DNA of 64,000 bases from Hydrogenovibrio sp. (GTDB taxonomy: Bacteria > Pseudomonadota > Gammaproteobacteria > Thiomicrospirales > Thiomicrospiraceae), in NCBI GenBank assembly GCA_049975065.1, contig JBNGDN010000001.1, one strand, 5' to 3'. Positions 5,461 through 45,913 of the stretch are shown here, one piece after another (position 1 is the first letter of the stretch; every line of letters begins with the position of its first letter). Both the position numbers and the translations under genes were made by a program. Under the pieces are notes generated by a model. The model had not been told where the DNA came from and searched no databases. It saw only the letters and a program-made list of their open reading frames with translations.

Positions 5461-5492
5461 CGGTTGCCCCAAATTGGTGAAACATTCGGGTT
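5461..5492 (+). repeat. Solo right-arm-like remnant of the 169-bp repeat family
   Basis: cggttgccccaaattggtgaaacattcgggtt resembles the right terminal arm tcggtgcaaatttgtgaaatattcgggtt of the elements at 15694 and 41664. No left arm was found nearby. Confidence 0.4.
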
Positions 5493-5693
5493 GAGAAAAG
5501 GGTTCAATTGCTATAAAGTTTGGGAGTGAATGGGGGATGCTGTTTGGGTTTGCCGTTTGGATTTACCCTTTAGGCGCGGCCATCGTAGCGATGCGTTTCC
5601 CGAGTCACGCTGTTACTTGAGTGAAAAACGGATTTTTTTATTATTCTGAGACTGCCTGTGTGCAAAAGTCTCCTTGAAACATTGGGATAGGCC

Positions 5694-14282: not shown

Positions 14283-15590
14283 TTGAAAATGTCGCAATCA
14301 AAGGTCGAATCCGCCGTTTCGGCCTGGCTGGCGCAATATCCGCCGCCCAACCGCTTTTTGGTAGCGTTTAGTGGTGGTATGGATTCTGTGGTATTGTTGG
14401 ACGCCTTATCTAGGGTATTGCCGCCCAATCGGCTCCGAGCGGTTTACATTCATCATGGGTTGCAACCCGAGGCGAGCGATTGGCAGGATTTTACCGCGGA
14501 CTTCTGTCGTACGCGCGGCATTGAGTATCAGTCGGTGGCGGTGCAGGTGGCGACCGCCAAGCGTCAAGGCCTGGAAGCTTTGGCGCGTGCAGCACGCTAT
14601 CAAGCCTTGTATGAATGCCTTGATGCCCAGACCATTTTATTGACGGCGCACCATCTGCGAGATCAGGCGGAAACCTTTCTGCTCAATGCGTTGCGCGGTT
14701 GCGGCCTCTCTGGGTTAGCGGCCATGCCATCCGAAAAAACCGTGCGTTTCCAAGGGCGAGTGCACCTGCATGCTCGTCCACTTCTTGATGTGCCTTATTC
14801 GGCCTTGCAATTTTATGCGCACCAGCACCGTCTGACTTGGGTGGCGGATCCCTCCAATTCCGATCCGAGCTTTCGGCGGAATTTCATCCGCCATCGCGTG
14901 TGGCCACACATTGACCAGGCCTGGCCAAAAGCCGAAAAGACGTTAGGGCAAACCATTGAGCATCTGTCCGAATCCGTCTGTTTGTTGGATGCCTTGGCCA
15001 AGCAAGACCTGGATGGAGCAGTGATGAATGCCTATCAATTAAGCTTGGAAGGGGTTTCCCGTTTGGGCGCTTTGCGGGTTAAAAATGCGTTGCGCTATTG
15101 GGCGCGTGAAGTGGCGCTGAATGTCCGCTTAAACGAGACGGTTTACGCTTGGGTATTACAGTGCTTGCAGCATTCAAACCCTGAATCGCATCCGCGTTTA
15201 AAGCAGGCGGGCATGGAGTATCGTTGGCATCGAAATCAACTGTATGCTTTTTCAGAGGCCATGTTGCGCGTAATTGCCGATGCGGATTATCGTGTGGTTG
15301 GGGCGGACTTTCAGGCACAAAATTATTATTTTTCGCATAGGCTTTACCAAGGTACAGAAAGTGACCAGGCCTGGTTAAACGCCAGATTATCGTCCGATGG
15401 GGCTTGGGTGCGCGCGATGAAACCAGAAGATGTGCAGCGCCTCGGTTTGAAGTCGCGTCTGAAAAAATGGTTTCAGCGTCAAGGGGTGCCGCCTTGGGAT
15501 CGTCGTCGCTGGCCGCTGTTGGAAAAAGATGGCGAAATCATCGCCGTTTTGGGCGGTGTTGAAGCGGATCTGTCGCATCGAACGGAATGA
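14283..15590 (+). CDS. tilS: tRNA(Ile)-lysidine synthase
   Basis: PP-loop motif VAFSGGMDS; accA-tilS synteny. Start is uncertain (TTG 14283 or ATG 14289). Confidence 0.9.
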   Translation: MKMSQSKVESAVSAWLAQYPPPNRFLVAFSGGMDSVVLLDALSRVLPPNRLRAVYIHHGLQPEASDWQDFTADFCRTRGIEYQSVAVQVATAKRQGLEALARAARYQALYECLDAQTILLTAHHLRDQAETFLLNALRGCGLSGLAAMPSEKTVRFQGRVHLHARPLLDVPYSALQFYAHQHRLTWVADPSNSDPSFRRNFIRHRVWPHIDQAWPKAEKTLGQTIEHLSESVCLLDALAKQDLDGAVMNAYQLSLEGVSRLGALRVKNALRYWAREVALNVRLNETVYAWVLQCLQHSNPESHPRLKQAGMEYRWHRNQLYAFSEAMLRVIADADYRVVGADFQAQNYYFSHRLYQGTESDQAWLNARLSSDGAWVRAMKPEDVQRLGLKSRLKKWFQRQGVPPWDRRRWPLLEKDGEIIAVLGGVEADLSHRTE

Positions 15591-15693
15591 ATGATTGCCC
15601 AAAAAACGGGGTTACGGTATAATTTGATTCCATTCTGATTATCCAATTCCGGTAGGTACTAGCCAGTTTCAAAGGCATTTTTTAATGATGTCT

Positions 15694-15862
15694 TTAACCC
15701 GAATGTTTTATGGATTTGTGCCGAAATTGCGCAGAACCTTGTTTTCACAAGGAAATTTTCGAAGAAGTGTCGTATTCATGATTACGGCCGACTGAGAAAA
15801 TATTTCTTGTAGAATCAAGGAGCAAGCAAGGTCGGTGCAAATTTGTGAAATATTCGGGTTAA
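15694..15862 (+). mobile_element. 169-bp MITE-like / structured-RNA repeat, intact copy 1
   Basis: 157/169 identical, without indels, to 41664-41832. TTAA at both ends. The 31-nt terminal arms pair continuously (24 Watson-Crick + 7 G-U in + sense). Internal hairpins at 15737-15752 and 15769-15788. No ORF. Confidence 0.85.
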
Positions 15863-15892: not shown

Positions 15893-17527
<1,635 letters not shown>

Positions 17528-17569: not shown

Positions 17570-18403
17570 ATGAATTTATGCGGTTTTAAAGTTGGAATCG
17601 ATCAACCGTTATTTTTGATTGCGGGTCCGTGTGTGATCGAATCGGAACAGTTGGCACTGGATACAGCCGAGCAGCTGAAAGTTTTGACCGACACCTTGGG
17701 CATTCCGTTTATTTTTAAATCGTCTTACGATAAGGCGAATCGTTCGTCCACCAAAAGCTTTCGCGGCTTAGGGATTGAAGAAGGCTTGCGTATTTTGCAG
17801 AAAGTGAAAGACGAGATCGGCGTGCCGGTTTTGACGGATGTGCATGAAGACACGCCATTGGATGAAGTGGCGTCGGTAGTGGATGTGATGCAAACGCCAG
17901 CCTTCTTAGTGCGTCAAACCAACTTTATTCAAAACGTCTGCCGCCAAGGCCTGCCGGTCAATATCAAAAAAGGTCAGTTTCAGGCGCCTTGGGATATGGA
18001 TCAGGTGGTATTGAAAGCGAGAGAAGTCGGGAACGATCAAATTATGGTCTGTGATCGCGGTACGTCCTTTGGTTACAACACCTTGATTTCCGATATGCGC
18101 GGCCTGGCGTCCATGCGTCAAACCGGCTGTCCGGTGGTGTTTGATGCGACGCACTCCGTGCAGCAGCCGGGTGGGCAAGGCACCACTTCCGGCGGGCAGC
18201 GTGAAATGGTTCCGGTGTTGGCGCGTGCTGCCGTAGCAGCCGGTGTCTCCGGTGTTTTTATGGAAACCCATCCGAATCCGGAAAAAGCCTTGTCAGACGG
18301 CCCGAATATGTGGCCACTGGGGAATTTGAAGCCCTTACTGGAAACCCTGAAGTCCATTGACGATGCGGTCAAGGAAAAAGGCTTTATTGAAAACCTGTCC
18401 TAG
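17570..18403 (+). CDS. kdsA: 3-deoxy-8-phosphooctulonate (KDO-8-P) synthase
   Basis: 277 aa, [12 protein letters not shown] motif; pyrG-kdsA-eno order. Confidence 0.95.
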
Positions 18404-18455
18404 CCCGAAAAGTTCATAAATCACGCCCCTTTTCGCTTTTATGAATTTCCGGGCT
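18402..18455 (+). repeat. Long imperfect hairpin overlapping the kdsA stop; its arms resemble the 169-bp element termini (miniature relative?)
   Basis: agcccgaaaagttcataaa ... ttttatgaatttccgggct pair as 6 bp + mismatch + 3 bp + bulge + 8 bp. Left arm versus element arm: aacccgaatatttcatgaa. Confidence 0.5.
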
Positions 18456-18540
18456 AAAACCGGCTTCAAAAGCCGATAAACCGAATTTGTCATCCGGCTG
18501 CCATAATCTGTTTTTAGAATGCAACGGATGAAACCAATAA

Positions 18541-19851
<1,311 letters not shown>

Positions 19852-19863
19852 TCCGGGTTAATC

Positions 19864-23184: not shown

Positions 23185-23186
23185 TC

Positions 23187-23302
23187 TAGCCCGAAAATTT
23201 ACCTTTGGTTCTTCGTTTCTGAAAACCCTCGTATTCACGATTGCGACGGACTGAATCACGCTTATCATGGAATCAAGGCGTCAGTAAGGCCAGTGAAAAT
23301 GT
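23187..23302 (+). repeat. Degenerate copy of the 169-bp element
   Basis: tagcccgaaaattt start, then cgtattcacgattgcgacggactga (versus cgtattcatgattacggccgactga), exact gaatcaagg, and ccagtgaaaatgt (versus tcggtgcaaatttgt). The right terminus has decayed. Confidence 0.55.
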
Positions 23303-23351
23303 ACGAATTGAAGATGTGAAGGTCACTATGTGGGATAGGTTGGTTTAGAAG

Positions 23352-24494: not shown

Positions 24495-24595
24495 TTCGAA
24501 TCCGAAGTGCTAACCTGAAGGGTTCACAAGCTTGCTACTGAGCTTGCTGGCTTCTTGATTCCAATCGCCTGCAAATTTATCAATTTTCCGAACTG
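24495..24595 (+). repeat. Probable internally deleted, decayed copy of the 169-bp element
   Basis: Collinear blocks match the intact copies: ccgaa.tgc..aacct, ttcacaag, actgag, ttcttg, and tgcaaatttatcaattttccgaac (versus tgcaaatttgtgaaatattcgggtt). By eye about 60-65% identity with a roughly 50-bp internal gap. Confidence 0.4.
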
Positions 24596-24967
24596 AATTA
24601 TACCTAAGATACCGTCTGTGTTCGCAGTGGTTTTCATCTGTGGGAGAGCGGGGGGATACGGTCAATATTTCAATTGACGAAAGGAATTGTTTCTGTATCA
24701 TTAGTAGATTAAATCTCATTATACTTTCTGCCGAAAGCGTCGCTATTGCGCGGATTTTTTGTCTGCGTTGCTCTGAAGTCTCGAGGTTTCAAAACCGTCT
24801 GTCCTGTCTGGAAATCTTCCGAATCGCGGTGGTTTGAGGTGGTTTCGTTGGTTTTTCGGGCGCGCAGCCAGTCGGCTTGAATCCGGCAGACTGCTGGATT
24901 CGTTGCTGAAATAAACCGAAAGCGAGCGCGCATTTGGCAGAACCAATTTTAAAGGTTAAACACTCAA

Positions 24968-38644: not shown

Positions 38645-41832
<3,188 letters not shown>

Positions 41833-45752: not shown

Positions 45753-45913
45753 TTAGAATACTTTGGGCTGTGTTTGATAAAATGGATCAGCGTTGTCTGT
45801 CTGACTTCGGTTAAGACGCTGTGCGGACGACACTCATTTTATATGGGATGTGCGCGTAAGGAAACCCATATCATACGAATTACTGTTTTAACCCAAATGT
45901 TTCAGGATATTGA

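Follow-up and report, generated by a model that had tools for sequence, protein, structure and literature searches.

The repeat found in two intact copies in the window, by which we mean the whole 64-kb stretch of DNA analysed here, is very probably a non-autonomous DNA transposon (MITE). In the window it consists of an element proper of 161 bp, CCCGAA...TTCGGG, which measures 169 bp with both of its 4-bp target-site duplications. It belongs to a family with hundreds of copies beyond the window, and across this family a rod-like fold of the whole element is maintained by compensatory changes on one strand.

Two intact copies and their setting

Window positions 15694-15862 (copy A) and 41664-41832 (copy B) align without gaps and are identical at 158 of 169 positions (93.5%). 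The original prediction had recognized this match correctly, but its count of 157/169 was one too low. Both copies start with TTAACCCGAA and end with TTCGGGTTAA, and the likeness ends precisely with the outer TTAA at either end, beyond which the flanks are unrelated. The two copies comprise the following features:

15694..15697, + strand: left target-site duplication of copy A, TTAA; other family copies have CTAG or TTAG here, directly repeated
15698..15858, + strand: copy A, element proper, 161 bp in the probable pyrG leader, with a conserved promoter-like block upstream of it
15859..15862, + strand: right target-site duplication of copy A, TTAA, as the left duplication
41664..41667, + strand: left target-site duplication of copy B, TTAA; its TAA is the ligA stop, the ligA ORF ending at 41667
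41668..41828, + strand: copy B, element proper, 161 bp
41829..41832, + strand: right target-site duplication of copy B, TTAA, as the left duplication

The 31-nt inverted arms and the lack of an ORF that had been proposed for both copies were borne out. When pairing was counted, the terminal arms formed 24 Watson-Crick pairs plus seven G-T pairs in copy A, and 24 Watson-Crick pairs, six G-T pairs and one mismatch in copy B; no meaningful ORF is present in either copy, with stops across all six frames. The G+C content of the elements is 38-40%, against 50.5% for the window. Pfam matches on syntenic loci gave the identities of the adjoining genes and agreed with the spacers originally named, tilS>pyrG and ligA>yjgA. 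The genes tilS (stop at 15590) and pyrG (start at 15902) enclose copy A, and ligA and darP/yjgA enclose copy B, where the ligA stop TAA (41665-41667) falls within the left TTAA. In relatives without the element, ligA ends at the same codon.

Upstream of copy A, the block at 15595-15690, which reads GGGGTTACGGTATAAT...TTCCATTCTGATTAnCCAATTCCGGT, is near-identical in a relative (contig L127), while the remaining spacer has diverged. This block contains a promoter-like site, TTGCCC-17-TATAAT, and probably represents promoter and leader of pyrG. In that case, the pyrG 5' untranslated region contains copy A and gains from it a hairpin of -79 kcal/mol.

Further copies and remnants in the window

In addition to copies A and B, the following members of the family were found in the window:

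18400..18457, no strand assigned: mini copy, internally deleted; CTAG, a 50-bp hairpin of the two terminal repeats (18404-18453), and CTAA
23186..23312, + strand: decayed full-length copy, from blastn and alignment to copy A, with a deletion of ~26 nt in the 5' arm
24507..24565, - strand: decayed 3' half copy, 79% over 53 nt to copy B positions 117-168 (E = 1e-6)
5470..5494, + strand: right-end remnant CAAATTGGTGAAACATTCGGGTTGA, 21/23 to copy A positions 145-167; weak on its own
19852..19861, + strand: possible right-end remnant TCCGGGTTAA directly after the eno stop (E = 2.5); weak, and possibly due to chance
45888..45910, + strand: possible left-end remnant TTAACCCAAATGTTTCAGGATATTG; weak

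The 64-kb window thus holds two intact copies, one mini copy, two clearly decayed copies and three weaker end remnants, and the mini, decayed, half and remnant copies agree with the earlier statement that the family occupies a notable fraction of its spacers. The mini copy was matched on either strand by the covariance model described below (27 bits, E about 4e-4), and the kdsA stop TAG (18401-18403) lies inside its left duplication. In the decayed copy at 23186-23312, CTAG is present at the left flank and the right end is eroded.

Mini derivatives, in which the two terminal repeats are joined into a hairpin of ~40-50 bp, occur in the window and in Nitrosomonas sp. Nm132 (mini-derivative loci: L040 5533-5578, L040 4931-4967, L034 2878-2938, L045 4700-4755 and L028 1170-1224), and their recurrence in both suggests that the rod commonly ends up internally deleted. 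Upstream of an aminotransferase gene (24566-24967), the window has a long spacer (508 nt, compared with 316 nt in the relative), of which the element fragment accounts for the first 60 nt only.

The statement that the window encodes no transposase also held for the ORFs and genes compared. Ten minus-strand ORFs tested against Pfam were ordinary housekeeping genes with no transposase among them, and the plus-strand genes within the compared stretches are syntenic housekeeping genes.

Empty sites in relatives

The comparison with empty sites that had been proposed as a check of mobility showed four window spacers without the element in a congener. In genome ERZ25042269, whose LigA is 92% identical, the sites in the ligA-darP, tilS-pyrG and kdsA-eno spacers and in the spacer at 23.2 kb are all empty. 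Its ligA-darP spacer is 33 nt long (L117), with the stop codon position unchanged, and its tilS-pyrG spacer 134 nt (L127); the mini copy is absent from the kdsA-eno spacer of L127, as is the decayed 23186-23312 copy from the L127 spacer. The ligA-darP spacer of H. crunogenus (L118) is 70 nt long and also without the element. A strain with a 99% identical TilS (L125 9621-9782, Logan SRR28369931) has the copy A insertion in the corresponding place; its contig ends 58 nt inside the copy, as assemblies do within repeats. Because the family breaks short-read assemblies, copy numbers in drafts and metagenome-assembled genomes are underestimates. The insertions in the window are recent and polymorphic.

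Searches with LigA and TilS placed the window in Hydrogenovibrio/Thiomicrospira, and its PyrG had no exact counterpart among recorded proteins. Against one and the same relative genome, LigA (39625-41667) is 92% identical and TilS only 55% (14283-15590), the two genes being 26 kb apart. This very uneven divergence may be due to rapid evolution of TilS or to a boundary of recombination.

The target-site duplication and its flanks

The terminal TTAA had been suggested to include a target-site duplication, and our analysis made this more precise: the bounding TTAA is the whole duplication, of 4 bp, and the target is not strictly TTAA but YTAR. The family HMM was run across the fetched loci without a flank constraint, which yielded additional copies. 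The flanks were CTAG/CTAG in six copies (five from Nm132 and one from a Gallionellaceae genome) and TTAG/TTAG in three. Save for scattered single-base variants, the interior of the CTAG- and TTAG-flanked copies is that of the Nm132 consensus, and beyond the flanking tetranucleotide the sequence is random. TTAG...TTAG is a direct and not an inverted repeat, indicating that the tetranucleotide lies outside the terminal repeat. Since both flanks switch together while the element is essentially constant, the mobile unit is CCCGAA...TTCGGG and the target YTAR. A duplication of TA only, of the IS630 or IS711 type, was rejected, as it would need the terminal bases of the element to vary with the outer flank bases.

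Every YTAR holds TAA or TAG, so that stop codons are natural targets that are restored by the duplication. In the window, the stop codons of ligA (TAA, 41665-41667) and kdsA (TAG, 18401-18403) are inside element flanks, and that of eno (TAA, 19849-19851) abuts the possible remnant at 19852-19861.

The two flanks of a copy are not always identical. Metagenomes were scanned with the pattern TTAG-CCCGAA...TTCGGG-YTAR, which biases the sample. After a left TTAG, the right flank in these pattern-biased metagenomes was TTAG 47 times, CTAG 34 times, CTAA 25 times and TTAA 14 times; for the window's own family in the same biased scan the counts were 21, 13, 1 and 1, respectively. With copies of the window's family placed in + orientation, the pair (CTAG,CTAA) was seen 12 times at 11 distinct loci and the mirror class once. 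L191 295-463 and L207 3078-3246 represent one insertion locus in two metagenomic strains, with flanks (CTAA,CTAA) in one strain and (CTAG,CTAA) in the other; the inner-left base differs between them. Three copies have one extra base, at the left end only. For one other family, reading of the sequences showed no effect of orientation on the mixed flank pairs. Mixed YTAR pairs would be predicted by carry-over of donor-flank bases, and not by plain fill-in duplication.

A repeat of ~173 bp with the ends YTAR-CCCGAA...TTCGGG-YTAR, which does not fold into a rod (about -40 kcal/mol), was seen at loci L130, L134, L137, L141, L160, L170, L187, L218, L220, L241 and L242. This repeat could be another non-autonomous derivative that relies on these ends.

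Distribution of the family

One representative genome per species was scanned for TTAACCCGAA-N(135-165)-TTCGGGTTAA, and at least 116 stretches holding at least 125 elements were retrieved. The largest cluster consists of at least 66 of these elements, which group with the window copies, can be aligned end to end and come from Gamma- and Betaproteobacteria. Identity to copy A across this cluster is 65-86%, being 86% in Hydrogenovibrio halophilus, about 80% in Chromatiaceae, 79% in Ectothiorhodospiraceae, and 65-72% in Thioalkalivibrio, Nitrosomonas, Gallionellaceae and Methylotenera. Among the loci examined, Nitrosomonas sp. Nm132 has at least 55 copies with a mean pairwise identity of 95.5%. 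Together with the further copies in the window and in other genomes, this answers the concern, raised with the original prediction, that the two intact copies might be the only ones.

Other clusters, with the same ends and rod shape and a length of 156-185 nt, occur in Flavobacteriia and other Bacteroidota, Verrucomicrobiota, Chthoniobacter, Nitrospirota and Elusimicrobiota. These clusters from other phyla also have an internal CCCGAAnnnTTCAT followed by CGU-N-A-Y-GA in the 5' arm, and a covariance model trained on 23 non-redundant members from Proteobacteria recognizes them. The terminal repeats are conserved family-wide over ~23 bp, with the consensus CCCGAAnnTTTCATrAATT. Members can be recognized by the signature YTAR + CCCGAAnnTTTCAT... 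rod of ~160-185 bp ...ATGAAAnnTTCGGG + YTAR. Copies of the family take up spacers and interrupt assemblies, and their insertion sites include exact stop codon positions and the leaders of essential genes, probably that of pyrG among them.

Searches for catalogued relatives and a transposase

A match to an already catalogued RNA family, which had been named as a possible outcome, was not obtained: Rfam 15 gave no match at the gathering score for the window and 16 loci from eight phyla, and none at E<=10 for copy A. No similarity to the element was found in PLSDB plasmids and GenBank phages, and blastn against 5,426 complete E. coli genomes (word size 11, E<=0.01) likewise returned nothing. IMG/VR viral contigs contained no full element and six chance-like matches to the terminal repeat. 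In the open-access literature, searched by sequence and by keyword, no description of the element was found and the terminal sequences were not printed. As far as the compared libraries show, the family is new.

No element that combines these ends with a transposase gene was found in ~1.7 Mb of DNA flanking ~250 copies. In all loci, paired ends more than 200 bp apart proved to be merely pairs of separate copies. Two candidate autonomous intervals were rejected on reading their sequences, one because it encodes a DinB-like polymerase and the other because it has no obvious transposase; an ORF adjoining copies in L045 was also discarded, as it resembles a membrane glycosyl/phosphosugar transferase. 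The proteins that recur next to copies belong to housekeeping families such as ABC ATPases and histidine kinases, with no transposase, RAYT or TnpA near the copies. No autonomous partner was found in the flanking DNA, plasmids, phages or E. coli, and mobilization of the element in trans is putative.

The fold is maintained on one strand

Over its full length the element is an imperfect palindrome, and it folds into one rod of ~56 base pairs. As + strand RNA, copies A and B fold with -78.9 and -79.1 kcal/mol, respectively, and none of 200 shuffles equalled the 169-nt element (z = -11). The - strand RNA folds are weaker (-45.0 kcal/mol for copy A and -50.0 kcal/mol for copy B) because 8-10 of the + strand pairs are G-U. 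With DNA parameters, the gap between the strands is smaller (-34.9 vs -26.3 kcal/mol). The covariance model likewise scored copy A with 158.5 bits on the + strand vs 55.8 on the - strand, and copy B with 157.6 vs 59.9 bits.

In the alignment of the 23 sequences, double compensatory changes were found at 25 of the 56 predicted pairs. Paired cells made up 94.4% of this alignment, compared with 85.7% when shuffled and 33-47% when the partners were slid, and by any measure none of 500 shuffles matched the observed covariation value. On the + strand, the whole family has 283 G-U cells vs 20 A-C cells, and the relation is reversed on the other strand. Lineage consensuses, each from at least two copies per lineage, were used to strip shared ancestry and private mutations; they retained 25 G-U vs 2 A-C, with the G-U at 23 different pair columns. 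The same excess was found in Bacteroidota (50 vs 5) and Chthoniobacter (17 vs 3), for which a sequence motif, and not the fold, served to assign the strand, and in Verrucomicrobiae (21 vs 5), for which the model did so. These data show that the fold is maintained by compensatory changes, on one strand.

A different picture emerged within the 55 Nm132 copies, where rare transitions at paired positions changed Watson-Crick pairs to G-U 18 times vs 19 times to A-C. Lineages thus fix G-U while resident variants are symmetric, suggesting that the constraint acts on the transposing lineage and not on each inserted copy. Judging from these counts, the fold appears to be needed for propagation via a single-stranded form (RNA or ssDNA of one strand), and not for a host function at each locus. 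Relative to flanking genes, orientation is unbiased (opp/opp 19, same/same 10), and neighbouring copies on one contig occur in both orientations.

Conserved unpaired motifs are CGCAGGA, GAAGGAG and CCGACUGAG, and the asymmetric internal loop CGU-N-A-Y-GA is conserved across phyla. Several readings of such motifs were rejected. A small ORF behind GAAGGAG is a frame of 5-6 codons in copy A and Nm132 that lacks a start codon in copy B and Thioalkalivibrio. The partner strand does not fit a hammerhead or a C/D-box K-turn reading of GUGAUGA, and the window's subfamily has CYGAAAU, CUGAUAU or CUGAGGU in place of this motif. An integron attC site was discarded, since the GTTRRRY motif is not conserved and CTAG-flanked copies are without it. 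A sense-strand RNA role in host mRNAs was likewise rejected, as orientation relative to the neighbours is unbiased.

Explanation of the element and its rivals

The MITE-type architecture that had been predicted is supported by more than two copies, empty sites and duplications. Of the features generically listed for bacterial MITEs (PMC3184786), the element has the following: it is shorter than 300 bp and non-coding, has terminal inverted repeats and flanking direct repeats, and is present in multiple copies at sites that are filled in some genomes and empty in others. In a mechanism of this kind, the terminal repeats would likely be the binding sites of a putative transposase supplied in trans. 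The enzyme would cut YTAR (TTAA, CTAG, TTAG/CTAA) with a 4-nt stagger, and repair would duplicate the tetranucleotide on both sides. Insertions into YTAR would often hit stop codons, to be regenerated by the duplication, as is the case for ligA and kdsA. At some step of the life cycle, one strand would presumably pass through a single-stranded form, either RNA or ssDNA. Several observations speak against the MITE explanation: no autonomous partner was found in the sequences searched, the flanks are not always identical, a strand-specific fold is unexpected for classical double-strand cut-and-paste, and the first base does not fit IS5. Selection on the structure of one strand, combined with neutral decay of resident copies, offers a handle on why bacterial MITEs are often full-length palindromes.

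What goes beyond an ordinary MITE is the cross-phylum reach, the strand-specific structure tied to propagation, and the missing transposase. That ends, size and shape are retained between Proteobacteria, Bacteroidota, Verrucomicrobiota and Elusimicrobiota points to a widespread putative transposase with YTAR specificity. A bolder explanation, which we hold only tentatively and consider rather doubtful, is a mobile class spanning phyla that propagates via a strand-specific folded ssDNA or RNA and a YTAR-cutting enzyme that carries over donor-flank bases at one end in a piggyBac-like manner. If true, it would join the fixation of G-U but not A-C in lineages whose resident copies drift neutrally, the loop shared between Proteobacteria and Bacteroidota, the orientation-specific mixed flanks and the polymorphism at the L191/L207 locus.

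It is very improbable that the family consists of structured non-coding RNA genes, in which the rod as a + strand transcript would be the product, used by the host as a regulatory, protein-binding or processing signal. Such a gene would account for the strong covariation across genera, for the large strand asymmetry at the RNA level (-79 vs -45 kcal/mol, against only -34.9 vs -26.3 with DNA parameters), for the conserved unpaired motifs and the cross-phylum loop, and for the place of copy A in the predicted pyrG leader, where it would necessarily be transcribed in the + sense. However, copies show no orientation bias relative to flanking genes, and resident copies accept structure-breaking and structure-keeping transitions equally. 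They also decay to remnants within one lineage, and their sites are empty in the congener. Both the duplications at the flanks and the dozens of nearly identical copies in a genome point to transposition, and Rfam has no match.

Movement of the hairpin as ssDNA by an HUH (Y1) enzyme, in REPIN/RAYT or IS200/IS605 style and with the flanks as cleavage or target sites, is likewise very improbable. This explanation would suit a strand-specific hairpin that tolerates G-T, flanks that are always YTAR but not always identical, the orientation-specific class of flanks with occasional extra bases at one end, and the failure to find a DDE transposase. Yet within one genome near-same interiors occur with TTAA/TTAA, CTAG/CTAG and TTAG/TTAG, a co-change that HUH transposition does not give. 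Moreover, the 23-bp terminal repeats extend to the outermost bases of the element, whereas IS200/IS605 hairpins are subterminal. Neighbouring copies in both orientations argue against a replication-strand bias, and neither RAYT nor TnpA genes were seen near the copies. Finally, a segmental duplication or a chance palindrome outside any mobile family, which the mere two intact copies in the 64-kb window might suggest, has next to no probability given that the likeness stops at TTAA on both sides, hundreds of copies exist elsewhere, sites are empty in relatives, and the fold has z = -11.

Comparison with known systems

The element had been likened to Correia- or ERIC-type repeats. The architecture is indeed alike, but the element belongs to neither family. 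Correia elements duplicate TA and are known only from Neisseria, whereas the present element has a 4-bp YTAR duplication, its family extends across classes and its superfamily across phyla, and its termini have no obvious resemblance to the Correia sequence. Shared with Correia/NEMIS, a Neisseria MITE of about 104-157 bp with terminal inverted repeats of ~25 bp, are the small size, the non-coding and multi-copy nature, the whole-length hairpin, the lack of a cognate transposase in the host, and the intergenic location with co-transcription with adjacent genes (in part after PMC3184786). With ERIC/IRU (about 127 bp), the element has in common an imperfect palindrome, conservation across genera above that of neutral spacer, the status of an orphan MITE and the potential for an RNA hairpin, while length, termini and target differ. 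Since E. coli genomes carry ERIC copies and the 5,426 searched gave no match, the element is not ERIC.

Like REPINs and BIMEs, which are RAYT-moved REP doublets, the element is hairpin-forming, intergenic and multi-copy and has no internal transposase. REPINs make no target-site duplication, have REP units of ~20-40 nt with a conserved GTAG, and depend on one RAYT gene per genome; none of these traits (the absence of a duplication, the REP units and the tie to a RAYT) was seen in the present element.

IS701 also makes 4-bp duplications, and its terminal consensus is different from that of the present element (PMC2266710). The IS5 family is similar in its YTAR target with a 4-bp duplication; YTAR is reported as a target of IS5 and IS711. 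No IS5-like transposase bounded by the present ends was found in the loci searched. IS5 makes a 4-bp duplication, and the ends of its family begin with G, whereas the present element begins with CCCGAA.

piggyBac and IS1380 prefer TTAA as a target, make a 4-bp duplication and have CCC...GGG ends; piggyBac is eukaryotic. The present element resembles them in its CCC...GGG ends and its preference for TTAA, a likeness that serves as a lead only. It differs in that CTAG and TTAG are used too (YTAR), and no transposase of either family was seen. The mixed flanks are what would be expected from a piggyBac-like 5' overhang carried over from the donor, if the target rule were relaxed.
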